From positions 1 to 64,000 of the IMG/VR virus record IMGVR_UViG_3300023179_000039: a stretch of 64,000 nucleotides of DNA. One strand, 5' to 3'. Under the pieces are notes generated by a model. That model had not been told where the DNA came from. It made no database searches and saw nothing but the letters and a program-made list of their open reading frames with translations. Source of the stretch: a virus. The position numbers were made by a program, and so were the translations under genes. This document shows, one piece after another, positions 1 to 61,629 of the stretch. How positions within the stretch are numbered: position 1 is the stretch's first letter; the number at the start of each line of letters is the position of its first letter.

Positions 1-789
1 GATACCGTTCATGTTCTTCAAGTCCTGCTCAAGTTCGACAGACCAGCGAGCGGCAAGGCGGCGTGTACCGGCCTCAACGGCTGTCTTTTCGAAGCTGACT
101 ACGACCTGAGGAATATTGCTGTTTAGCTCAAACTGGCTGAGCAACTGAGCAACACCACGGTCTTGATCGAGAACTGTAAAGTCGGCATTGCCGGACAATG
201 CAGTGCTCTGTGCACCGGTAAACCCGGTGGCAAGGAACTGATAGCCAAGCTCAGGATTGCTGGATAAAGCCTGTTTCCAGGAATTACCGCCAAACTGAGT
301 GGCACCGGTGTTACCATCGATGCTACCAGTCTGATAGCCTAAGCTTGTGGGTTCGTACTTATAACGGAGGGCAAAAGCAAGGCCTACTGGACCGCTCATG
401 GGCTGAACGCCAACGATTTCGTTAGTGATCAACTCAGGGAACGTACGGCGAATCATCGGAATGAGGATCTTAGGAAGACGAGCATCGCCTTGAGCATAAG
501 CACCGTCATTCTGTGAAGGGAACTGGTTGCCATAAGCACCATTATTAACGGAGCCAAATACGCTTGTACCTGAACCTCCGCCAAAACTTCCACCAGCAAC
601 GTTGCTTGCTTCGAAGCACCACTTCTCTTGGTTTTCCAAAAGGATAGCGGTGTTTAAGCGAGTGTGATCGTCTTCAATAGCGCGGACGTTATCGGAAGAG
701 TAATCCAGAACTGGACCCCACTTCTCGAGAAGTACCCTAGCGCGTGACTCATCAATGTAAGCCTGTGTAGGACGAATTTGTTTAGCCAT
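1..789 (-). CDS. gp23: Major capsid protein, T4 gp23-like (5' part; runs off window start)
   Basis: Hand translation from ATG 789: MAKQIRPTQAYIDESRARVLLEKWGPVL...TAILLENQ...IPMIRRTFPELITNEIVGVQPMSGPVGLAFALRYKY...FEKTAVEAGTRRLAARWSVELEQDLKNMNGI, which are gp23 motifs. It lies downstream of gp21-gp22. SD-like GGAG at 802-805. Not in the ORF track because it is truncated. Confidence 0.96.
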   Translation of the reverse strand, partial: MAKQIRPTQAYIDESRARVLLEKWGPVLDYSSDNVRAIEDDHTRLNTAILLENQEKWCFEASNVAGGSFGGGSGTSVFGSVNNGAYGNQFPSQNDGAYAQGDARLPKILIPMIRRTFPELITNEIVGVQPMSGPVGLAFALRYKYEPTSLGYQTGSIDGNTGATQFGGNSWKQALSSNPELGYQFLATGFTGAQSTALSGNADFTVLDQDRGVAQLLSQFELNSNIPQVVVSFEKTAVEAGTRRLAARWSVELEQDLKNMNGI

Positions 790-819: not shown

Positions 820-855
820 GACCTTTTAAATTTATCTGACCTTTTAAATTTATCT
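820..855. repeat. Perfect tandem 18-bp direct repeat (GACCTTTTAAATTTATCT x2) upstream of gp23
   Basis: Read directly: 820-837 and 838-855 are identical. Confidence 0.9.
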
Positions 856-1995: not shown

Positions 1996-2667
1996 TTAAG
2001 AAGCTCTTAAAAACTTAAAAAACGTCAAAATTTGCTCTTTAAGGTAAGTTTGCATTTCCTTTCTTGGTAAAGTATTTAGCGATTTTTCAAATTTATCAAA
2101 TACTTCTTCTAATTCACCGTTTGTATTGACAACATATTGTTTGCTTTCTAGAATACCGTTAACAAAAGCCTTAGGACAGGATGGATCAGCAACACAATCA
2201 ACAGCTATTAATCTCATGTCTGTTACGCGATTAACACCCCCTGCATCTTCATTTAGCTTTCCTAATGCACGGCTAGACATACCAACCTTAACACCATCAT
2301 TAATAAGTGAACGTACTATTTGTCCCATGGGAGTAGATAGTACTTGTGATTTACCTAGAACGTGGTTGCCCTCAAATTTTAAATTTGTAACAATATGACA
2401 TGCTCTTTCAAGATTTACTTCTGCTGAAGCAGGGTGATTTAATTCTCCCATGGCGCGCTTGGTGCTGACCATTTCAGAAACATATCTCTCTACTTCACGG
2501 CGCATATCATCCTTTTCGTAAATTCGTTGATTTTTATTTACTTCATTACAAACCATGTAAGGGCCTTGAATATAAAGCTTTGCGGGCTCCTTAGGATTTT
2601 TCTCTTCTAGGATATATTCAAACTGCTCTTCAGGAGCAGGTGTTTCGACGAGTAGACGAAGCGCCAT
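1996..2667 (-). CDS. gp21: Prohead protease, gp21-like
   Basis: Motifs LYIQGPYM, NKNQRIY, RAMGELNHP, STPMGQIV, VGMSSRALG, DCVADPS. Confidence 0.95.
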   Translation of the reverse strand: MALRLLVETPAPEEQFEYILEEKNPKEPAKLYIQGPYMVCNEVNKNQRIYEKDDMRREVERYVSEMVSTKRAMGELNHPASAEVNLERACHIVTNLKFEGNHVLGKSQVLSTPMGQIVRSLINDGVKVGMSSRALGKLNEDAGGVNRVTDMRLIAVDCVADPSCPKAFVNGILESKQYVVNTNGELEEVFDKFEKSLNTLPRKEMQTYLKEQILTFFKFLRAS

Positions 2668-2671
2668 AATA

Positions 2672-3130
2672 TTATTTATTTAGTCCTAATTCCTTTTCTG
2701 TTAATATTAAGAATTTATAATTTCTTTTATCACACCACTTTTTAGCAGCTTCCCATTTAGCCATATTCTGTATATATCTTTTATTTTCATAAATGACAGT
2801 GCTCTGTCTTTTCTTACCAGGTTTTGGTTGAACAACCTGTGAAGATGGCTTAATTTCTATTATATACTTGTTGATAATACCGTTTTCTCTTATTGCTACA
2901 ACACCGTCTGTATAATATCTATGTGTTTTACCATCAATAGGGTTTACATATGGTATTATGATTGCCTCGCTTGCCCATTCAACTATATTAACATTTTCAT
3001 CACACCATCTAAAGAAACGAAGCTCCCACCCAGATCTGTAAACCGGCGGCGTACGGCCTATGTATTTTGATGTATTTCTAGGGCGAAATATACCCTGGCG
3101 AAAGCTATCGTTTTTACCAAGAGGTATCAT
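2672..3130 (-). CDS. gp4: Head completion nuclease, gp4-like
   Basis: Motifs YRSGWELRFFRWCD, WASE, IPY, YYTD, IEIKP, N.AKWEAA, ILTEKEL. Confidence 0.9.
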   Translation of the reverse strand: MIPLGKNDSFRQGIFRPRNTSKYIGRTPPVYRSGWELRFFRWCDENVNIVEWASEAIIIPYVNPIDGKTHRYYTDGVVAIRENGIINKYIIEIKPSSQVVQPKPGKKRQSTVIYENKRYIQNMAKWEAAKKWCDKRNYKFLILTEKELGLNK

Positions 3131-13820: not shown

Positions 13821-14531
13821 ATGGCAATAAACACTTCTAACAGCAACTATGTAAATATCAGTAATCTTCCTCAAGCACAAGAGGCAATAGATACTGATCT
13901 AATAATTTTGCAAACAGAGAACGGTACTCAAACTATAACGTTTGGTGACTTTAATGTTGTAAAAACAGATGCTGCTGGTAATGCTACGATTGTAGGTAAT
14001 GTTACCGGAGCTAACGCTACTTTTAGTACGTTGTCAGCTAGCAATTATATAAAGACTTTAAATTATTACGCAGGTAATAATACAAAAGGCATCTATGCGC
14101 CAAATGCTTTTTACAACAGATTTACTATTAATGCAGGGTTAATAACTTCTGCAGATATTAATCTAGGATCTCCGGAATATGTTAACATTACGCAAGTAGT
14201 ATTACCATCTCTAACTGGTTGGCAAGACACGCAATATAAGAAGATTATTGACATTAATAACAATTCTGCAACAATTCTAGCTAATTATTCTTATGTGCCT
14301 GTTGAAATTATTAATTTTTATCAATCATATCCACAAATTGCATCTTCCTCACTAAACGGTACACATTTCATGCTAACAGCCACATCTAGATTATCTTCCA
14401 TGCCCTACCTTACCGATTTAAATAATGATCTATATAGATCTAATACAAACAATTTGTATTTTAGAATTAATTTAGGTTACGTTGTACCGCAAAACACTGT
14501 AATTAATTGGCGACTTCTTTACACGTATTAA
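13821..14531 (+). CDS. Putative virion structural / fibre-associated protein
   Basis: Late box TAAATA 13809-13814; N/T/S-rich, beta-type composition; N-terminal VNISNLPQ motif. Confidence 0.5.
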   Translation: MAINTSNSNYVNISNLPQAQEAIDTDLIILQTENGTQTITFGDFNVVKTDAAGNATIVGNVTGANATFSTLSASNYIKTLNYYAGNNTKGIYAPNAFYNRFTINAGLITSADINLGSPEYVNITQVVLPSLTGWQDTQYKKIIDINNNSATILANYSYVPVEIINFYQSYPQIASSSLNGTHFMLTATSRLSSMPYLTDLNNDLYRSNTNNLYFRINLGYVVPQNTVINWRLLYTY

Positions 14532-14737
14532 CGTGTATGGAACATTAATGCTTTATTAATACGCGCTAAAGCTATTCTTGGATGCAATCCTTCATCTAGT
14601 AATCTCTTATATTCCGTCTTGAACGATTTTACAAAGTCTTCTGATAGTCTGAAGTTTTTAGGGTAAAATTCTTTTTTAACTGTTTTTAAGTATTTAAAGC
14701 TTTCTAGAAGCTTGTCTACATTATCATTAAACGTCAT
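14528..14737 (-). CDS. Small hypothetical protein with capsid-targeting-like N-terminus (MTFNDNVDKLLE)
   Basis: TAAATA 5 nt before ATG. Confidence 0.6.
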   Translation of the reverse strand: MTFNDNVDKLLESFKYLKTVKKEFYPKNFRLSEDFVKSFKTEYKRLLDEGLHPRIALARINKALMFHTR

Positions 14738-21822: not shown

Positions 21823-22230
21823 GTGGATAACATACTAACTAAGTGTACTGAGATTTCATATGCTTTATTAAAGAAGCATGGTAATTATCGTTGCAAGCAT
21901 TTCTCGTTTATTTTTCAAAGAAATAGGCTTATTTCCATAGGTATTAATAATCCGACTAAAACGCATCCAAAAAATTTAGAAATTGGGTTTTTTAATAAGA
22001 GGGGTGAAGATATATCTCATACCGTTGGTGTACATTCTGAGCTTTCTGCTATTTTAAAACTTGGAGAAGAAGATTGCTCCAAATTTACATTAGTTAATAC
22101 AAGAATTAATCGTAATCACCAATTAGATTTCTCTAAACCATGTGAAGGATGTACATCTCTTCTAGAGCAGCTTAACTTAAGAAAGATTTATTATTCAACA
22201 ATTAAAGGTTACCAGTTCTTACAGCTGTAA
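21823..22230 (+). CDS. Cytidine/deoxycytidylate deaminase-like zinc enzyme
   Basis: HSE...SKPCEGC zinc motif. Confidence 0.8.
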   Translation: MDNILTKCTEISYALLKKHGNYRCKHFSFIFQRNRLISIGINNPTKTHPKNLEIGFFNKRGEDISHTVGVHSELSAILKLGEEDCSKFTLVNTRINRNHQLDFSKPCEGCTSLLEQLNLRKIYYSTIKGYQFLQL

Positions 22231-22496
22231 TATTTAGGTGTCCCCGGTTTTGCAGACGAGCATTTATGCCTAGCTCTAAATGATTTACGTCTTTTTGGAT
22301 TTGATTTTTTTATGCGCAATCCCGGGTCACCGTAATGAATTCTCTTTAATTTACCGTCTACTCTAGCACAACGCATGTATTTCTTGTCTGAACGTGTAGA
22401 AGATTGCTGCCCAGTAACCTTTGTACAGCGAGAACCTTTTTTCTCTTCTAATATATCTTGTTCCAATGCATTGATAAACGCTTTCTCGAATAACAT
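22209..22496 (-). CDS. Small basic Cys/His-containing phage protein
   Basis: Motif IHYGDP...RRKSFRARHKC...YYSCKNW; late box 5 nt upstream. Confidence 0.65.
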   Translation of the reverse strand: MLFEKAFINALEQDILEEKKGSRCTKVTGQQSSTRSDKKYMRCARVDGKLKRIHYGDPGLRIKKSNPKRRKSFRARHKCSSAKPGTPKYYSCKNW

Positions 22497-23172: not shown

Positions 23173-23829
23173 TTATTTTAGCTTGGCGTTAAACAGATTA
23201 TAAATTTTTGGATCAAACTTACCAATTACGCTTGTAACAATCTCTTTACGCTGTTGTTCGTTTGCCGCCTTATACATATTTCTTAGTTCAGTAGCACTTG
23301 TTATAGCTTTTTTTCCTATATTAAAAGTTATAGTACCCGGTGAATATATATAGCCATGTCCACCGGCTTCTTTAAACGGAACCATTTCATTTAAATTTTT
23401 AAAAGGCTGAAAATATGTAGGTGTACCTTTTTTAGTCATACCAAAAGAAAATCGAGGATCCTCTTTCATATCTTTCTCTCCTACAACATAAATTACTTTG
23501 GCAATATTAGAATCATAATCTTTTAAAATTTCTAATGGCTTATAAGGCTGTTTTACTAATCTTATCTCTTGTTCGGGTATACCTGCAGCCATCATAATTT
23601 GTTTTTTTTCATTGAAGTTAAATGGATAACGACCTGGGTCTTTTGCAGCATCTTTTGTGGGCATATCAGAAGTAGCTATAAAAAAATCTGCACCTGGAAA
23701 TTGCTTTTTTGCCATATCAAAAAATCTCTTATGACCTATATGAAAAGGTTGAAAGCGCCCAGGAAAAATTACAATCAAATTATTTTTTTGATGCATTAAA
23801 ATTTCATTTACTAATTTGTCAAATTTCAT
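23173..23829 (-). CDS. HIGH-motif nucleotidyltransferase (cytidylyltransferase/NMNAT-like)
   Basis: Motifs PGRFQPFHIGH, PF.F.EK, VVGEKD, SATELR. Confidence 0.85.
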   Translation of the reverse strand: MKFDKLVNEILMHQKNNLIVIFPGRFQPFHIGHKRFFDMAKKQFPGADFFIATSDMPTKDAAKDPGRYPFNFNEKKQIMMAAGIPEQEIRLVKQPYKPLEILKDYDSNIAKVIYVVGEKDMKEDPRFSFGMTKKGTPTYFQPFKNLNEMVPFKEAGGHGYIYSPGTITFNIGKKAITSATELRNMYKAANEQQRKEIVTSVIGKFDPKIYNLFNAKLK

Positions 23830-25040
23830 ATTGTTGCTCCCGGAGTTAAGGTACCTCTCAAAATATCCTTACTGTATGGTGGCGTTGTTTGATAGTTATT
23901 GGCTTTAACTACTTTATCTGTATTAAAAAGCTGTCCCTTTATACCATACTCTTCATTTTCATTTCTTTTAGCAAATTTACCAGCTTCTTTTCCAGTTATA
24001 AAGCTACCAGTAATTTTTACCGGATTTGTTGATACACTAGGATCTCTTATCACAATGCCCTCTTGTGTATTTAATGATCCTAATTTTGATGAAGCAGCCT
24101 GTTTAATGACATCGCCTAGAACGATAGTAGCATGATAAAGTAAAGCTCCATTTATAGCTTTATTAATAACATCTTGATTATCTCCAATGTATTGATGCAT
24201 TGGTACACCTGCAGTTACATTTTTATAATTTTCTAAGCTCATAGCACTTATAGTTTTACCAGAAGCAAGTTTTATTTTTTCAGCTCTAGGGTTAATAGCT
24301 TTAGCTAACCACTTACCTAAAGGCTGTGAAACTATATTTCTTGTATCATAATTTACAGTAAATTCTGAATTTAAAACGCTATTAAAATTAACATTTCCTA
24401 ATTCAACAGCAAATTCGTGCTCAACATCAAAACCATATTTTTTAGCAATAGGATTTACTTTTTCTATTAACGATAATAATGCCTTTTTATCATAAGATAT
24501 TTCTCTTGATGCTCTTCTAATACTACCTTTAACAGGGCTCTTAACTTCTATAATTTCGTTTAAACCGTGAATGGCAAGAAAGTTATTTGCATATCCAATA
24601 ACGTTGGTTGCACCTTTTACAAATTCCATATTAAAAAGAATTTTAGGATTATTCCACATTTTAAGTTTTTTTAGTTCAGGCTCTATATTAGGAATAGCAG
24701 TATTAAAAATATTGAGTACAGTTTTTCCTGTCTCTATCATTCCATGGCCTTCAGGAAATCTTGATGTAAGCTTAGCTATAGTAACACCTTCTACGTCCTC
24801 AGGTTTATTAGAACCTCTATCCATAGCAAACTCTTTATTACCTTCTTCATTAGTAATAAGCTTTATTGATGCGTTAACTCCGTCAATTTTTACAGAAGAA
24901 GGTTTCTTTTTTAAGCTAATAGCAATTTTATTAAAGACATTTATTAAGTCTTTACCACTATTAACATTAGGTAAATCAAAAGGATGGGCCATATGCCCGG
25001 CTACTCCACCCTCAACTAAAAACTGTTCAAACGTTATCAT
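23826..25040 (-). CDS. Putative ATP-dependent ligase-fold nucleotidyltransferase (DUF6267-like)
   Basis: GHMAHPFD, KIDG (motif I), EGIVI (motif IV), VKITG (motif V). Confidence 0.6.
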   Translation of the reverse strand: MITFEQFLVEGGVAGHMAHPFDLPNVNSGKDLINVFNKIAISLKKKPSSVKIDGVNASIKLITNEEGNKEFAMDRGSNKPEDVEGVTIAKLTSRFPEGHGMIETGKTVLNIFNTAIPNIEPELKKLKMWNNPKILFNMEFVKGATNVIGYANNFLAIHGLNEIIEVKSPVKGSIRRASREISYDKKALLSLIEKVNPIAKKYGFDVEHEFAVELGNVNFNSVLNSEFTVNYDTRNIVSQPLGKWLAKAINPRAEKIKLASGKTISAMSLENYKNVTAGVPMHQYIGDNQDVINKAINGALLYHATIVLGDVIKQAASSKLGSLNTQEGIVIRDPSVSTNPVKITGSFITGKEAGKFAKRNENEEYGIKGQLFNTDKVVKANNYQTTPPYSKDILRGTLTPGATI

Positions 25041-26456: not shown

Positions 26457-26906
26457 TCATTTTAATTTAGGGTCGTTACTATACTTTTGCATTACAGAAA
26501 GAAGCTGCTTATATTTAGCCATAAAATTATTTTCATTTATAGATTTTACAAATGCTCTATAATGTGGATTTTCTATTTTCTGAGGATTGTCTTCGTAATT
26601 TTCATTTGTATTAATTGCATCTTGTAATCCTTCTCTTACTTGTGTAGCATTTTCCTGTGTAATAGGAGTTGTAAATAAAGCATCAATAGAACCAGCAGGT
26701 ATATTCATTACAAGAGCCTTAGCAAGCATTCTTACCATATCAACATATCCCTCGGGCGGTATAGCAGTTTGCTGTTCAGTTGAGGGTTGAGGCGCAGGCT
26801 GCTCTGCAGCAGGCGCAGGTGCCGCGGCATCCTGAGTATTCATATCTTGTTGAGGTGCTTCAGTTAACGTAGAAAATAAGGATTTTAACTTATTGTTAAA
26901 TGTCAT
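26457..26906 (-). CDS. Hypothetical protein (probable start ATG 26906, MTFNNKLKSLFSTLTE-A)
   Basis: TAAATA 26912-26917 lies 5 nt before this ATG. Confidence 0.6.
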   Translation of the reverse strand: MTFNNKLKSLFSTLTEAPQQDMNTQDAAAPAPAAEQPAPQPSTEQQTAIPPEGYVDMVRMLAKALVMNIPAGSIDALFTTPITQENATQVREGLQDAINTNENYEDNPQKIENPHYRAFVKSINENNFMAKYKQLLSVMQKYSNDPKLK

Positions 26907-26922
26907 ATTATTATTTATTAAA

Positions 26923-27504: not shown

Positions 27505-27924
27505 TTAAATGTTATCAAGAAAATTCTTTGGCGGCCTTCCAATCCTTACATTTATAATACCGTTATAATAATCTTCTCTCATTAAAACGTTTTTTGCTAT
27601 CTGCTCAGATATTTCAAAGTAAGCTAGCTCCCATTTAGATCCACATGCTCTTAGAATTTTAAAGATAAATTTATCTTTACCATATTTTTTAATATCTTCA
27701 TTTAGCTCAGTCGATGAGCTTGTATATTCTTTCCAATCAGATTCTTTAATTTCAATTCTTTTATTTTTTCTGCCTTTTAAAGGCTTTTTTTTTAATTTTG
27801 ATTTACATTGCTTTTTACCAATATACTTCTTGCCGGTGACAGTATTAGTAATTTCGTAAATAAACCCAAACGTATTCTCGTTAACTGTTACGTTTTCGCT
27901 TAATATCCAATGACCTAGATCCAC
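27505..27924 (-). CDS. GIY-YIG endonuclease family protein
   Basis: Motifs GFIYEITNTVTGKKYIGKK, ESDWKEYTSSS, YFE, YYN. Confidence 0.82.
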   Translation of the reverse strand: MDLGHWILSENVTVNENTFGFIYEITNTVTGKKYIGKKQCKSKLKKKPLKGRKNKRIEIKESDWKEYTSSSTELNEDIKKYGKDKFIFKILRACGSKWELAYFEISEQIAKNVLMREDYYNGIINVRIGRPPKNFLDNI

Positions 27925-27927
27925 AAG

Positions 27928-28185
27928 TTATTTAGATGTTTTAAGAACTAATCCAGGTAAAGGACGACGCTGTACAAAAAACTTTTTCTTCTTTTTCTTT
28001 GCACCTAAAACTTTAGGCACTCTAGCATCACCCGGTGCATATGCATTATCGTTTTGTGAAGGAAATTGATTACCAAATTCTCCAGATAACCCTTTTACTC
28101 CAAATATACTGTCAGCCCCTCCAGCAACGTTTACAGTTTCAAGTAGTTTTAAAAATTTTGATTCAAATAAACCAATTGATTTCAT
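27928..28185 (-). CDS. Small protein reproducing the major-capsid N-arm sequence, with poly-Lys tail
   Basis: GNQFPSQNDNAYAPGDARVPKVL versus gp23 residues 87-109 GNQFPSQNDGAYAQGDARLPKIL (19/23 identical). Confidence 0.8.
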   Translation of the reverse strand: MKSIGLFESKFLKLLETVNVAGGADSIFGVKGLSGEFGNQFPSQNDNAYAPGDARVPKVLGAKKKKKKFFVQRRPLPGLVLKTSK

Positions 28186-28211
28186 ATATGTTTATATTAT
28201 TATTTAATTTA

Positions 28212-28604
28212 ATGCTGCTAGAAGAATATATAAAAGAGCTTGAAAACGACTTAAAAATAAGTGAATTAGAGCTCAAAGATTATCAGTTAAAATTACCAGG
28301 CATCAAGCATAAGTGGGCCGGTAGATGTATTCGACATAAGTTAGAGCTCAACGATTTACGTAAAAAGCGCGATTTGCTTAAACGTACTTTAGTCGAAAAG
28401 CTTCAAGAACAAAGCCCGGTAAAGCTTAATCTACCTGTTGCTGAGCGTACAGTTGAAAAGCATAGCGAGCTTGTAGAGCTTGACAATAAGCTTAAACAAC
28501 TAGAGCTTGTAGTTGAGCTACTAGAAAAATCAGAAAAAACACTAAGCGCTACATCTTATGACTTGAAGAATATTATTGACATTATCAAACTTGAAACGAC
28601 ATGA
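28212..28604 (+). CDS. uvsY: Recombination mediator UvsY-like (probable start ATG 28212)
   Basis: Helical protein with DLKI, LPGIKHKW, YDLKNIID; directly upstream of uvsW. Confidence 0.75.
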   Translation: MLLEEYIKELENDLKISELELKDYQLKLPGIKHKWAGRCIRHKLELNDLRKKRDLLKRTLVEKLQEQSPVKLNLPVAERTVEKHSELVELDNKLKQLELVVELLEKSEKTLSATSYDLKNIIDIIKLETT

Positions 28605-49973: not shown

Positions 49974-51005
49974 GTGTTAGTTCCTACCGAATATATACTG
50001 CAAAAATTCTATCAATATGCAGGCTACCCGCAATTTAAGAAAACAAGCAATACGTATATTGCAGGGTGTCCAATTTGTAGGGAGGGTAAATCGTGGGGTA
50101 AGAAGAGAAGATGTATTTTTATACCTGAAGATGGTGTTGTATGTTGTCATAATTGCGGGTGGTATAGTAATGCTGTAAAATGGATAACTGAGGTATCTGG
50201 TCTTTCGTTCTCTGAAATAGTAAACGAATCTAAAGAATTTGATGTGTTGCCATTAAACGTGTATCAAGAAGAAAAAAAGCCTGTTAAAAAACCAGCTGCT
50301 ACTTTACCTTCTGATTGTATAAATTTGTTTGATTCAAATCAGATAGATTTTTATAAAGATAACTCAGTAGTAAAGGATGCCTTAGAATTAATTAAAAATA
50401 GAAAATTAGATGTAGCTATTAATAGACCGGATACGCTGTGGGTTACTTGTAAAGACAAGATTCATAAGAATAGAATAGTGATACCTTTTTATGATGAAAA
50501 CAATAATATTATTTTCTATCAAACCAGGCTCATATATAAAAAAGATGAGCGAATGTATCCAAAATATCTAAGCAAGGTAAACGGTGAAAAGTCACTATAT
50601 AATGTTAATAAGATTTCATCTAATTTAGAATATATTTTTATTTTTGAAGGCCCTATAGATGCTTTTTTTGTTAAAAATGGAACAGCTGTTGCTGGTATTC
50701 AAGAGAAAAGTTCTAATACATTTTCTACACTACAAGAGCATCAAATGTTATCTTATAAATTTTTTAATAAAATATGGGTATTAGATAGTCAGTGGCAAGA
50801 TAAAGCTAGCAGAAATAAAACTAATAAATTAATTGAATCTGGTGAAACAGTATTTATTTGGCCTGAAAACGTTGGTAAAAAATATAAAGATATTAATGAG
50901 ATGTGCGTGGACAGAGACTTATCTCAAATAGATCCAGAGTTTATAATTAGTAACTCACACAAAGATATGAAAGCCAAGCTTTTAATGTCTATTATCTGTC
51001 GTTAG
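49974..51005 (+). CDS. gp61: DNA primase, gp61-like
   Basis: CPIC...CHNC zinc finger, RIVIPF, KY, FEGPIDA, LD, KDINEM. Confidence 0.93.
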   Translation: MLVPTEYILQKFYQYAGYPQFKKTSNTYIAGCPICREGKSWGKKRRCIFIPEDGVVCCHNCGWYSNAVKWITEVSGLSFSEIVNESKEFDVLPLNVYQEEKKPVKKPAATLPSDCINLFDSNQIDFYKDNSVVKDALELIKNRKLDVAINRPDTLWVTCKDKIHKNRIVIPFYDENNNIIFYQTRLIYKKDERMYPKYLSKVNGEKSLYNVNKISSNLEYIFIFEGPIDAFFVKNGTAVAGIQEKSSNTFSTLQEHQMLSYKFFNKIWVLDSQWQDKASRNKTNKLIESGETVFIWPENVGKKYKDINEMCVDRDLSQIDPEFIISNSHKDMKAKLLMSIICR

Positions 51006-51396
51006 CAGAAATAAGATATCCCTTTAACGATTCGCTTAGCGAGCTTAATTCTGAAGCAAGTCTCGCTATTTTCTTTTTTTCACTTCTAGCAATATCTTCA
51101 AAAATAGTATCACAAGCTGCTGTATGTAATTGTACTTGCATGCTTGAAGGTTCTGTACTATTTAAAAACTTAATGAATTCATCTATTTGAGAAATCCATT
51201 CTCTTAGCTTTTGAACTTGTTCTGTCTTTCTGTGATCCTGTACTTGCTCTCTACCACCTTGTACATCAAAATCTTCAGGCTTTGCATTAGTTAATGTCTG
51301 TGCCATAGCTTCTTTGTCGTTAGCAGGAGCAGCAGGTTCTGGGGTAGTTTCGTCAGCTTCTAAAAGCGTATAAAATCTTTTAACAAATGAACTCAT
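50992..51396 (-). CDS. Hypothetical late protein with capsid-targeting-like N-terminus (MSSFVKRFYTLLE-A)
   Basis: TAAATA 5 nt before ATG. Confidence 0.6.
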   Translation of the reverse strand: MSSFVKRFYTLLEADETTPEPAAPANDKEAMAQTLTNAKPEDFDVQGGREQVQDHRKTEQVQKLREWISQIDEFIKFLNSTEPSSMQVQLHTAACDTIFEDIARSEKKKIARLASELSSLSESLKGYLISANDR

Positions 51397-55277: not shown

Positions 55278-58055
55278 ATGTTATATATGCCTAAAAAACA
55301 AGAAAGTCAATTTTATTTAGGAAATCAAAATTTACCCACAACAGATGCTGTATTTGATTATGAAGCACATCCAGAATGGGTACAAGATATAGCCAGATGT
55401 AGAAAAAATATATTATATTTTGCTGAGAACTTCTTCTATATTACCAATCTAGATGAAGGTAAGATGAAAATTAAACTTCATACTTATCAAAAGCGTATTT
55501 TAAGAAGTTTACGAGATAATAGATTTGTATGTTTATTAGCAAGTCGTCAAATTGGTAAAGCACTTGCTTTAGACACCCCAATACCTACTCCAGCTGGATG
55601 GACTACTATGGGTGAATTAAAAGACGGGGACATTGTATTTGGTTTAGATGGTAAAAGATGCAAGGTTGCAAAAGCTCATGATATTTTATTAAATAGAAAT
55701 TGTTATGAAGTGTTGTTTGATAATGGTGAAAAAATAATTGCTGACGAAGATCATTTGTGGTTAACACAAACTAGAGCCGAAAGACATAAAGAGATACAAG
55801 GTAGTAAAAAGACAACTAAAGAAATTTTCAATACTTTATTAACTAAATCTAAAACAAGACAAGAACCAAATCATAGAATTCCGGTTTGTTTGAATGGTAT
55901 AGAAACGAGTAGAAATTTACTACCAATAGATCCTTATGTTCTAGGATTTTGGTTGGGCGATGGAGCTTCTGAAGGCGGTACAATAACTGTTGGTAAAAGA
56001 GATTTAGATAATGTTATCTCTATTCTTAAAAATAATCAAATGCAGTTTAACAATTTAATTGTACATAAATACAATAAAAATGCTTTTACAGTGCGCATTA
56101 CAACCAGCAAAAACGTAAAGACTGAAAGTTTAAGCACATTATTAAAGGAAAATAATTTAGTTTTTAACAAACATATACCGCAAGAGTATATGTTAAGTAG
56201 CAGAACACAAAGATTATCTTTACTGCAGGGGTTAATAGATAGTGACGGCTATATAACAAAACATGGTATAGCTCAATTTTATAATACAAATTTAAATTTA
56301 GTAAAGCAGGTAAGAGAACTTATTGAAAGTTTAGGATACAAAGTAACTTACAAAGAATTTATTCCAAAACTCAGAGGTGTTGAATGCAGTAAAGTAGGCA
56401 CATTGACTTTTACTCCTTATGAAGAGGTATGTCTTTTAGACTTTAAAAAATCTAGACTAAAGAAAATAACTAAAAAAGAAAACGTTTCTAAATTAAGAGC
56501 TCAATGGCATTACATTAAATCTATAACCCCTGTAAAATCTGTGCCCGTTAGATGTATAACTGTAGATAATGAAACAGGGACATTTTTATGTGGAAAACAG
56601 TTTATTCCAACAAGTAATACTACATTAATGACAATATATGCTTTGTGGATAGCCTGTTTTTTTGAAGACCAACGTACTCTCATTGTCGCTAATAAAGAGC
56701 AAACAGCAATTAATATTTTTAAGAGAGTTCGTTTAGCTTATGAAAAACTACCAAACTATCTTAAACCAGGAACCGTAGAATATGGGAAAACATCAATGTC
56801 TTTGGGAAACGGGTCTAGTATTGGTATTTCGACGACAAGTAGTGATGCAGGCCGAGGCGATAGCTGTAATGTTTTAATTTTGGATGAGTTAGCATTTATT
56901 GACAACCATCTTGTTGAGCAATTCTGGAGTTCAGTATACCCAATTATTTCATCGTCCAAAAAATCTAAAATATTTGTTGCATCAACGCCAAACGGAACCG
57001 GTAATCTTTTTCATGAATTATATTCTGGGGCAATAGAGGGTAAAAATGATTGGCATGCTGAAAAAGTTGATTGGTGGGAGTTTCCCGGGCGTGATGATGT
57101 CTGGAAAGAAAAAACAATTAAAACTTTAGGCAGTAGAGAAGTTTTTGATCAAGAATTTGGTAATGTATTTTTACAAGCCGGAGAAAGTGCCATCGATGAA
57201 AAACTTTTTGAAGAAATGAAAACTGAATGTATTGAACCTAATTTTATTTTTGAAGAAGGAAAATATTTGATGTGGGAAGAGCCCTCACAGGATAAAATTT
57301 ATGTCGTCGGAGTCGACATAAGCGAAGGCGTAGGAGAAGCTGCAAGTGTTGTTCAAGTTTTAGATATTACGGATTTGAGAGAAATAAAACAAGTAGCAGT
57401 TTATCATGACCGTACAATTAGCCCTTACAATTTTACAACTAAGTTACACGAAATCTTAAAGCACTGGGGATCACCTCTTGCCATGATAGAAAGAAATAAC
57501 TGCGGTGCACAGGTTGTCGATCAACTTAAAAATACTATGGGATATGAAAATATAGTTTCATATGGAATTAAATCTGGACCGGTTTCGTTTAATAAAATTG
57601 GCGTACAAGCCCATACCAACACAAAATATAAAGGTGTAATGAATATGCGGTATTGGATGTCAGAATTAAAAGTATTAAAAATTAGAGATTTAAAAACGTT
57701 AAACGAATTAAAAGGGTTTGTTCGCTATCCTAACGGCACATGGGCGGCTAAACAAGGTTCAGATAGCTGGGATGATAGAGTAATGAGTCTTATGTGGGGG
57801 CTAATGATTTTAGAAAACGGGTTAGTGGAAAAATATTTTGAAATTGTAGAGTTTGATAATAATAAAAAACCATTAAAATTAAAATCTTTAGATTATGGAA
57901 TTAAGTATTTTCTAAACCCTGCATCAATTTATAACAATGAAAAAAATGGCTTAGAAGGGTTACCACCTTTACCTATAGTAATACAACAACAAGATAATAA
58001 TGATTTTAATGAAATAGCTGATTTAGAATCACAAGGCTACCGCCGAATTCAATAA
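55278..58055 (+). CDS. gp17: Terminase large subunit gp17-like, intein-containing (start may be ATG 55287)
   Basis: SRQIGK|TT Walker A split by the intein; ANK, LDELAF, STPNG, QEF, GVDISEG, IERNN, DDRVM. Confidence 0.95.
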   Translation: MLYMPKKQESQFYLGNQNLPTTDAVFDYEAHPEWVQDIARCRKNILYFAENFFYITNLDEGKMKIKLHTYQKRILRSLRDNRFVCLLASRQIGKALALDTPIPTPAGWTTMGELKDGDIVFGLDGKRCKVAKAHDILLNRNCYEVLFDNGEKIIADEDHLWLTQTRAERHKEIQGSKKTTKEIFNTLLTKSKTRQEPNHRIPVCLNGIETSRNLLPIDPYVLGFWLGDGASEGGTITVGKRDLDNVISILKNNQMQFNNLIVHKYNKNAFTVRITTSKNVKTESLSTLLKENNLVFNKHIPQEYMLSSRTQRLSLLQGLIDSDGYITKHGIAQFYNTNLNLVKQVRELIESLGYKVTYKEFIPKLRGVECSKVGTLTFTPYEEVCLLDFKKSRLKKITKKENVSKLRAQWHYIKSITPVKSVPVRCITVDNETGTFLCGKQFIPTSNTTLMTIYALWIACFFEDQRTLIVANKEQTAINIFKRVRLAYEKLPNYLKPGTVEYGKTSMSLGNGSSIGISTTSSDAGRGDSCNVLILDELAFIDNHLVEQFWSSVYPIISSSKKSKIFVASTPNGTGNLFHELYSGAIEGKNDWHAEKVDWWEFPGRDDVWKEKTIKTLGSREVFDQEFGNVFLQAGESAIDEKLFEEMKTECIEPNFIFEEGKYLMWEEPSQDKIYVVGVDISEGVGEAASVVQVLDITDLREIKQVAVYHDRTISPYNFTTKLHEILKHWGSPLAMIERNNCGAQVVDQLKNTMGYENIVSYGIKSGPVSFNKIGVQAHTNTKYKGVMNMRYWMSELKVLKIRDLKTLNELKGFVRYPNGTWAAKQGSDSWDDRVMSLMWGLMILENGLVEKYFEIVEFDNNKKPLKLKSLDYGIKYFLNPASIYNNEKNGLEGLPPLPIVIQQQDNNDFNEIADLESQGYRRIQ
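55560..56618 (+). mobile_element. Class 3 intein (353 aa) with LAGLIDADG homing endonuclease, in the terminase Walker A motif
   Basis: Starts ALALDTPIPT; block B ADEDHLW; LGFWLGDG and LQGLIDSDG; block F VRCITVD; ends FIPTSN followed by Thr. Confidence 0.93.
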
Positions 58056-58063
58056 ATATTTTT

Positions 58064-58726
58064 ATGGCAAACTTAGTTACATACACCCAAAGCCCTTTTA
58101 ATAAGGCGCGTAAAGACAAATTTTTATTTGTCTTAAATTTACCCCCTTGCTTAAAAGACATCTCTAGAAAAACCGAACGTAGTAATCAAACAGTAATGCC
58201 TGATTCTTTACAATTTTCAGTTTTTGGTGCAATCGTACCAGAAGTAACAGTACCTTCTGTACAATTAAGATATTCCGGTCAAACTTTACACAATTCGAGT
58301 CATTCACGCGACCCCTACCCTCCCGTTACAATTAATTTTACTGTTGACAATAGATTTAATAATTACTGGATCATTTATAAATGGCTGGACCTTCTTAATA
58401 GCGCAAAGTTAAGTTATTATGATGCAAATAATTTGACAAAATCTAATATTAAGGAAACACCGGGAAATATTGATCCTCGCGAAAATTCGAATTCTGCTCT
58501 AGCTGCTGTTGGCTATGATTATCTTAAGTTTAGAGCTAACTTTTCATTGTTTGCGTTAGATGAATATGATAAAAGAATTATTGAATTTATATACAAAGAA
58601 GCGTTTCCTACAGCTATAGGAAGTATTAATTTTAACAATAGAGATGCCTCAGAATTAGAAACTTCTTTTACGTTTGAATATTCTCAGCTGGAAGTATCTC
58701 TTATTGAACAGGTAGATAGTTTGTAA
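58064..58726 (+). CDS. Tail completion / tube terminator, gp3-like
   Basis: Tube-fold pattern F.VD....NY..IYKW, F..AFPTAIG.I.F, F.YS. Confidence 0.7.
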   Translation: MANLVTYTQSPFNKARKDKFLFVLNLPPCLKDISRKTERSNQTVMPDSLQFSVFGAIVPEVTVPSVQLRYSGQTLHNSSHSRDPYPPVTINFTVDNRFNNYWIIYKWLDLLNSAKLSYYDANNLTKSNIKETPGNIDPRENSNSALAAVGYDYLKFRANFSLFALDEYDKRIIEFIYKEAFPTAIGSINFNNRDASELETSFTFEYSQLEVSLIEQVDSL

Positions 58727-61065: not shown

Positions 61066-61069
61066 TAGA

Positions 61070-61080
61070 TAAATACTTTT
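61070..61080 (+). promoter_or_regulatory. T4-type late promoter (TAAATA-N5-ATG) of the tail tube gene; representative of about 30 sites
   Basis: TAAATA 61070-61075, CTTTT, ATG 61081. A gp55 homologue is present in the window. Confidence 0.8.
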
Positions 61081-61629
61081 ATGGCAGACGTAAATCAATT
61101 AATTACAGACTTCTACAGAGTAGCACAAAATCGCGAGTTCGCTCGTGATTATAACTTCAGAGTATTATCAATTAATACTGGAGGCGCTAGCAACGTAACA
61201 TTCGATCAAGACGATCTCGTATATGTTAAGACAGCTTCTTTACCTGCCCGTCAAATAAAAAACGTCGAAGTACCTTACATGGGATTAAACTTTAACCTTC
61301 CTGGTAATGCTACGTATCCCGGTTCTGATGCTTATGAAATGGCATTTTATGCTGATGCACAGTCTAAAATTCGTCAGAAATTTGAAACATGGTCATTAGA
61401 TATCTTTAATGACGCTAATTCAACCGGTAACTATTTTGCACCAAAGCAGACAGCTATTATTGATTTAGTTCAACTCGATAACCAGCTTAACAAAGTTGCA
61501 CAGTATCAATTAGTTGGTGTTTCAGTAAGAAATGTTGGCCCGATAAGCTATAACATTGCTGCTGGCACTGGCGAAACAATTGAATTTACCGCTACAGTTT
61601 CTTATCACTATTGGAGAAATATCGGCTAA
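61081..61629 (+). CDS. gp19: Tail tube protein, gp19-like
   Basis: Motifs ASLPA, VPYMG, IRQKFETW, VQLD, IEFTAT.SY.YW; follows the sheath gene. Confidence 0.88.
   Translation: MADVNQLITDFYRVAQNREFARDYNFRVLSINTGGASNVTFDQDDLVYVKTASLPARQIKNVEVPYMGLNFNLPGNATYPGSDAYEMAFYADAQSKIRQKFETWSLDIFNDANSTGNYFAPKQTAIIDLVQLDNQLNKVAQYQLVGVSVRNVGPISYNIAAGTGETIEFTATVSYHYWRNIG

Follow-up and report, generated by a model that had tools for sequence, protein, structure and literature searches.

A conserved small gene with a copy of the gp23 N-terminal arm that follows the capsid protein of its own phage

The small ORF at positions 27928 to 28185 of the window is a real, conserved and selected gene. Its product copies the N-terminal arm of the capsid protein gp23 and tracks that arm in its own phage. 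The build of the gene suggests that it is the version, in the clade of the window, of the design of T4 gene 61.1, in which the mobile N-terminal element of gp23 is copied into a separate gene. The reading that we prefer, with a probability of about 0.5, is that the product is an accessory protein that is targeted to the prohead, processed by the prohead protease and equipped with the docking element that gp23 itself carries at its N-terminus. Its targeting, cleavage, binding partner and effect on the head are the parts that we infer.

The T4 head is among the best-studied virus assemblies, and a detached copy of the mobile N-terminal element of its capsid protein has stood there without an assigned function. 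In enterobacterial phages, as well as in those of cyanobacteria and of the lake, this detached copy changes in step with the capsid sequence. This persistence and co-variation imply a partner that is common to the small protein and the gp23 N-fist. Such a shared partner would bear on the communication between shell and scaffold, the setting of head length and the stability of expansion.

Architecture of the small ORF

The window is the whole stretch of DNA that was analysed, namely the first 64 kb (64,000 nucleotides) of a 109,659-bp IMG/VR viral contig with a CheckV completeness of ~51%. The sole public sequencing run that contains the stretch is a lake-water metagenome, possibly the source sample, and no RNA run is present among the public sequencing runs that contain it. 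The features are as follows.

27928..28185 (-): small ORF, 85 aa plus stop, ATG start, composed of a leader, the capsid-arm copy, a Lys tract and an R-R-P-L-P-G-L tail
28138..28185 (-): leader, residues 1-16 (M-K-S-I-G-L-F-E ... L-L-E), similar to capsid-targeting sequences, with a hydrophobic-x-E site of the prohead-protease kind at its end and predicted cleavage there
28006..28137 (-): copy of the mature gp23 N-terminal arm (N-fist and arm), residues 17-60
28000-28080 (-): invariant core, G-N-Q-F-P-S-Q-N-D ... P-G-D-A-R-x-P-K
27982..27999 (-): Lys6 tract, residues 63-68
27949..27969 (-): R-R-P-L-P-G-L, counterpart of gp23 R-R-T-F-P-E-L
1..789 (-): gp23, truncated by the contig end
430..609 (-): model of the copy, gp23 residues 61-120, from the predicted mature N-terminus to R-R-T-F-P-E-L
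1996-2667: prohead protease, gp21 homologue
27505..27924 (-): GIY-YIG gene with a SegE-type domain (PF19835, 2e-30), 139 aa, starting 3 nt past the stop of the small ORF
28193..28205 (-): conserved 13-mer, consensus A-A-A-T-A-A-T-A-G-T-A-T-A, within the 26-bp gap between the small ORF and uvsY
28212..28604 (+): UvsY-like gene, divergent from the small ORF and first of the uvsY-uvsW-gp55-gp47-gp46-gp43 module
50019-50987 (+): primase homologue

The equivalent of R-R-P-L-P-G-L in the alignment with T4 gp23 is R-R-A-I-P-N-L (residues 100-106). The small protein can be read as four parts, which would be an amphipathic leader that ends in L-x-E, the portion of gp23 that follows the cut, a Lys tract at the Arg-Arg position and a second R-R-x-x-P-x-L. 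The second R-R-x-x-P-x-L is found only in the clade of the window. The head module also has an ORF with a TnsA-like endonuclease N-terminal domain (2672-3130(-), PF08722, 2.5e-18) that adjoins the prohead protease gene.

Likeness to gp23

The small ORF and the gp23 of the window share 20/27 identical residues in BLASTP (E 3e-13), and a six-frame search of the whole contig returned just these two copies and not a third. The 27-residue core (28000-28080 versus 457-537) has 19 identical residues at a nucleotide identity of 51/81, and different codons are used at 13 of those 19 residues. The original prediction had described both the likeness to the gp23 arm and this codon count, and both were reproduced. 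It had also placed the start of the likeness at the predicted cleavage Glu, which agrees with the alignment, where similarity begins at N-V-A-G-G in both proteins directly after a Glu. The context of that Glu is L-L-E in the small ORF and C-F-E (residue 60) in gp23, and it is a putative protease site.

C58, F59 and E60 do not vary among 14 gp23 sequences, and all gp23 sequences of the clade share G-N-Q-F-P-S-Q-N-D-x-A-Y-A-P-G-D-A-R-L-P-K-I-L after C-F-E. The core motif is near-invariant across the clade in both the small protein and gp23. The window gp23 matches PF07068 (2.4e-31) from residue 112 onward, downstream of the copied segment. The small ORF has no Pfam match and hence no PF07068 HK97-fold body.

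The Lys6 tract is located between P-K-V-L-G and R-R-P-L-P-G-L and aligned with I-P-M-I-R-R of gp23. The tract that had been described as inserted is present; it can be read as an expansion of the invariant di-arginine of gp23 and equally as an insertion.

Conservation, selection and synteny

A protein search gave 48 family members, 55-96 aa long and with identities as low as 49%, and 49 loci were identified by a scan of viral contigs. In the family alignment the leader is conserved and the core G-x-x-F-P ... D ... A-P-x-D-x-R-x-P is invariant; a K/R run is also present, as is R-R, with R73 and R74 invariant. The median of pairwise dN/dS is 0.18, and synonymous sites are close to saturation. 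The small ORF is a genuine gene under purifying selection.

The synteny is strict in 18/18 loci examined, and both the small ORF and the GIY-YIG gene are intact in all of them. One side of the small ORF consists of the divergent uvsY followed by uvsW, gp55, gp47, gp46 and gp43. The other side consists of the 139-aa GIY-YIG gene, a 186-aa gene and a gene of ~150 aa, beyond which lie a variable gene, a 404-aa gene and a cytidylyltransferase. The GIY-YIG gene is always the downstream neighbour of the small ORF and is among the best-conserved genes there. Since it is 65-92% identical and fixed in position across the 18 loci, it acts as a resident core gene and not as a mobile homing endonuclease. 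The size of its product is reminiscent of T4 endonuclease II.

The small ORF could in principle be a non-functional relic, either a gp23 fragment that was moved by the adjacent GIY-YIG homing endonuclease or an artefact of assembly. The SegE-type gene that lies 3 nt downstream would suit such an origin, as would T4 segD, which adjoins gene 23. Against it stand the intact and syntenic state of 18/18 loci, the immobile neighbour, a dN/dS of ~0.18, codons that have diverged from gp23, and a leader and tail that belong to the small ORF itself. This explanation has practically no probability left, and a pseudogene dragged in by a homing endonuclease was rejected on the same intact loci, dN/dS and codons. 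An old copy under selection, as originally proposed, is what the dN/dS and the diverged codons indicate, and its expected presence in relatives is seen in the 48 proteins and 49 loci.

The small ORF gave no match in tblastn against 50,697 phage records and none against Pfam and PHROGs. A nucleotide search with the locus returned just one irrelevant 40-nt match, and the family profile had no match to the sequences of solved structures at E up to 10.

Counterparts in T4-type phages and cyanophages

T4 gene 61.1 (NC_000866 18966-19130, phrog_1823) encodes a 54-aa 'hypothetical protein'. The protein matches T4 gp23 residues 57-93, a segment that spans the E65|A66 maturation cut, with 17/37 identical residues (E 6e-9), and the only solved structures that it matches are gp23 chains, where the match falls on the N-fist. 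The leader, M-K-T-F-K-E-F-I-K-E, terminates in I-x-E and is identical at 7/10 positions to the capsid-targeting sequence of ipII/ipIII; in the PHROG search, the only related match was a weak one of T4 61.1 to phrog_5341 'internal virion protein' (E 0.31). A K4 tract follows the gp23 copy, and the tail beyond K4 is acidic. Homologues of T4 61.1 are present in 1,389 phage records, some of them annotated as 'major capsid (domain-containing) protein'. In the searchable literature, gp61.1 receives only passing mention, in two papers.

Long forms of 61.1 (150-166 aa, phrog_2086) are found in Ac42 and RB43. The sole solved-structure matches of T4 gp61.1 and the RB43 long form are gp23 chains, residues 58-100. 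The 10-aa leader is replaced in the long forms (L078:83-535(+) in Ac42 and L079:86-586(+) in RB43) by an N-terminal domain of ~105 aa, which has no match to a known family.

The four cyanophage genomes were each searched with their own gp23 N-terminus. A second N-fist copy was identified in 2/4, namely S-CRM01 g121 (64 aa) and P-HM2 PHM2_171 (234 aa), and this self-search found none in Bellamy and S-CAM4. In tblastn against phage records, S-CRM01 g121 matches itself only, and the P-HM2 form occurs in P-HM1 and MED4-213 only. The basic tract aligns with the invariant R-R of gp23 in all lineages, and the design spans phages of enterobacteria, Aeromonas, Acinetobacter, cyanobacteria and a lake host. 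The earlier statement that no T4-like gene of this kind was known is not supported, since T4 61.1 shares the design and so do two cyanophage genes.

T4 61.1 matches phrog_1823 at 3e-33, whereas neither phrog_1823 nor phrog_2086 was matched by the window ORF and three divergent relatives in the PHROG search, with E values of up to 5 admitted. The alignments of the window family and the 61.1 family were paired by hhalign with 65% probability (E 6e-5) over 20 columns only, and those columns comprise the leader end and the E-D-M-V-A-G junction.

Co-variation with gp23

The small protein of each lineage tracks the capsid protein of that lineage. The small proteins of T4, 44RR, RB43 and Ac42 match the T4-type gp23 arms and not those of the window clade, while the small proteins of the window clade match the gp23 arms of their own clade and not the T4-type ones. 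The small protein agrees with gp23 at a V/I site (G-A-V versus G-A-I) in 4/4 T4-type phages. Within the window clade, the G/N-D-A/S/T site matches between the small protein and gp23 in most pairs. Record G005 offers the clearest case, as both of its proteins have lost a Gln (Q to A/V) and have turned F-P-S into F-P-G.

A permutation of the 25-residue cores from 10 contigs gave a score of 952 for same-genome pairs versus 889 +/- 21.5 for shuffled pairs (p 0.0016), where the 10 pairs count lineages and not events, with few independent changes. Co-variation of the small ORF with the gp23 arm of its own genome, which had been expected, was borne out by the joint changes in G005 and by this permutation.

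The positional orthologues of three more distant lineages (G004, G006 and G015) have drifted from the motif of their own gp23, which retained it. They are located as follows.

L094:1229-1486(+): drifted positional orthologue
L049:5998-6237(+): drifted positional orthologue
L050:6001-6237(+): drifted positional orthologue

These orthologues retain the leader, the basic tract and R-R, and their middle part has diverged. Strict mimicry is therefore not obligatory.

Leader, basic tract and proposed role

The leader terminates in [LIVMF]-x-E in 35/36 family members, in line with the original description of a targeting-like leader in place of the gp23 propeptide. The leader of the window ORF is 16 aa long and contains L-x-E twice. 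In some members the leader has only 10 aa (M-I-T-F-x-Q-F-F-x-E), and the leaders of P0036 and P0042 are 10-aa leaders of the T4 pattern. The longest K/R run in the family has a median of 5, and the net charge after the site has a median of +8.

Several neighbours in the same leftward cluster bear conserved leaders of the same type. The leader of the 404-aa protein, which also has 10 aa and the T4 pattern, is M-I-T-F-K-Q-F-L-L-E, followed by G-G-V-A-G-H. The leader-bearing proteins may form a set of packaged head proteins. Proteins with conserved leaders that end in hydrophobic-x-E and resemble the T4 capsid-targeting sequence are encoded at 23826-25040(-), 26457-26906(-), 23173-23829(-), 22209-22496(-), 14528-14737(-) and 50992-51396(-); most of these genes have the late motif, and one encodes a cytidylyltransferase.

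The role of a packaged accessory would proceed in three steps. The leader would direct the small protein to the scaffold that fills the prohead as its core, the gp21 homologue would cleave it after the Glu, and the resulting basic peptide of ~69 aa would bind the partner of the N-terminal element of gp23. The candidate partners are the acidic scaffold in the prohead and, once the head has expanded, the gp23 surface on which the arm docks. The basic tract would touch an acidic partner, either scaffold or DNA, and the outcome would be a minor accessory for head assembly or head stability.

Several findings weigh against this packaged accessory. The T4 61.1 protein is undetected and the small ORF is without the late-promoter arrangement, the P-HM2 version is without a leader, and 2/4 cyanophages are without a second copy. 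The drift of the positional orthologue in G004, G006 and G015 and the missing match to phrog_1823 and phrog_2086 count in the same direction. For the T4 internal proteins the leader suffices for packaging, and targeting thus does not call for an arm copy.

The copied segment in the T4 head

The residues 66-105 of T4 gp23 are disordered and inward in the unexpanded head, where they probably touch the scaffold, and on expansion they go outside as arm and N-fist and bind neighbouring capsomers (PMC9546572). The head-length mutations A66D, A94V and G97S fall in the copied segment (PMC9546572). The portal-vertex paper defines the N-fist as gp23 residues 66-91 and reports that the N-fists are disordered in the five portal-facing subunits, and that the portal-side capsomers are without a neighbouring capsomer (PMC7136217).

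A specific sub-case of the packaged-accessory reading, and one of the three mechanisms in the original prediction, is an arm supplied in trans that fills vacant N-fist docking sites at the portal or the vertices, with the Lys tract tethering DNA. The docking sites reciprocal to the five disordered N-fists would, by inference from that disorder, be empty. The tract is strongly basic, and only one Gp23-family (PF07068) gene per record was identified in G000, G002, G003 and G006, one of which is 88% complete at 193 kb, so that the clade seems to be without a gp24-type vertex paralogue. However, T4 possesses gp24 yet retains 61.1, the tail of T4 61.1 after K4 is acidic, and expansion places the N-fist on the outside of the head, away from the DNA (PMC9546572). 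In addition, unidentified, extra or unassigned density is not mentioned in the portions of the portal-vertex paper that a keyword search covers (PMC7136217). We regard this sub-case as quite improbable.

Timing of expression

ATAAATA-N5-ATG is present at 13 sites of the window versus 0.75 expected, for example at 2665-2679(-), 26904-26918(-), 58052-58066(+) and 61069-61083(+). It precedes gp21, the tail tube gene and several leader-bearing genes, and is probably a late promoter of the T4/cyanophage type. The late mRNAs would be almost leaderless because this putative promoter is so near to the start codon. A tandem duplication of an 18-nt unit that contains A-G-A-T-A-A-A-T-T lies upstream of gp23 at 820-855(-), and it may represent two late-promoter copies before the most highly expressed gene.

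The scan of the window did not find this arrangement at the small ORF, and a scan for sigma-70-type promoters did not find a convincing site directly upstream of it. The conserved 13-mer that lies upstream differs from the canonical late motif, and the rest of the window shows no excess of it (17 matches versus 13.8 expected). In T4, the transcript of 61.1 is classed as early and its protein is undetected in the time-resolved proteome, and the transcripts of ipII and ipIII are likewise classed as early (PMC9697503, Table S2).

This timing bears on a second explanation, in which the small protein is soluble and never packaged. The free arm would be made before the late proteins and would compete with the N-terminal element of gp23 for the scaffold, the docking groove or the protease, and it would thus time assembly, limit aberrant polymerisation or tune head size. 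It corresponds to the assembly or size regulator of the original prediction. The early class of the T4 61.1 transcript (PMC9697503) and the location of the small ORF beside early-type replication genes, without a canonical late motif, are consistent with such a regulator. The cleavage junction is included in the copy, which could make it a competing protease substrate, and the three head-length mutations in the copied segment (PMC9546572) point in the same direction. The conserved leader does not fit, since it is of the kind by which internal proteins enter the proheads of T4, and the early class of transcript also applies to the packaged ipII and ipIII. The soluble regulator is on the whole unlikely.

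The original prediction also offered an anti-defence decoy or sponge, in which a host sensor of the major capsid protein is kept busy by an innocuous imitation of a capsid epitope. Several bacterial defences do sense capsid proteins, one case being Lit with the Gol segment of gp23, and Gol comprises 29 residues of gp23 in its most conserved region (PMC3014915). A sponge that acts in advance would fit the early expression in T4, and a decoy must follow the capsid sequence, in keeping with the co-variation. However, Gol is presumably the conserved G-V-Q-P-M stretch of gp23, and both copies are without it: the small ORF terminates seven residues after R-R and the T4 61.1 copy stops at gp23 residue 93. 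The protease-type site and the targeting-type leader would be purposeless in a decoy. The design is retained across very different hosts, which favours a partner within the phage. The decoy is very unlikely, and it is the least likely of the three mechanisms that had been proposed.

A broader proposal is that T4-like phages generally, and T4 among them, produce a free N-fist that evolves together with gp23 and acts in trans on the capsid lattice. Once loaded into the prohead and cleaved there, it would fill empty docking sites at the portal or the vertices or would gate expansion, and its basic tract would be coupled to the incoming DNA. We consider this proposal distinctly unlikely. It would, if true, add an unrecognised structural or regulatory component to a very well-studied virus head.

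Comparison with known systems

The nearest comparison within the phage is the N-terminal arm of gp23. The small ORF carries the same segment without the HK97-fold body, and the Lys tract of the small protein stands in place of the I-x-x-I-R-R linker of gp23.

The T4 internal proteins IPI, IPII and IPIII have an N-terminal leader (M-K-T-Y-Q-E-F-I-A-E) that ends in a prohead-protease site and that the leader of the small ORF resembles, and their mature part is basic as in the window family. They differ in that they are without a capsid-protein copy. They also represent diverse anti-restriction cargo, whereas the window family is conserved and tied to gp23.

The genes of S-CRM01 (g121) and P-HM2 (PHM2_171) each copy the N-fist of their own gp23 up to ...P-I-L-G, followed by a K/R tract. 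S-CRM01 g121 is located directly upstream of primase, like T4 61.1. PHM2_171 differs in that it is without a leader and has a long charged C-terminal extension, and the sequences of both proteins are unrelated to the core of the window ORF.

T4 61.1 exhibits the same order of parts as the window ORF, with a leader that ends in hydrophobic-x-E, a copy of the junction and N-fist of its own gp23 and then a K/R tract. Both are small and unannotated and track the gp23 of their own clade, and the junction word E-D-M-V-A-G of T4 61.1 is common to some members of the window family. The copied N-fist sequences are wholly different because the capsid proteins differ. The copy in the window clade extends further, to R-R-x-x-P-x-L, and the leader has 10 aa in T4 versus 16 aa in the window ORF. 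The T4 gene is upstream of primase, whereas the window ORF is beside uvsY in all relatives and is not directly upstream of the homologue of primase gene 61 (50019-50987). The window ORF is thus a probable distant counterpart of T4 61.1 with the same design, and not a demonstrated member of its family, because of the missing PHROG match and the 65% profile-profile probability. Since T4 gene 61.1 is built in the same way, what such a protein does can be tested directly in T4.
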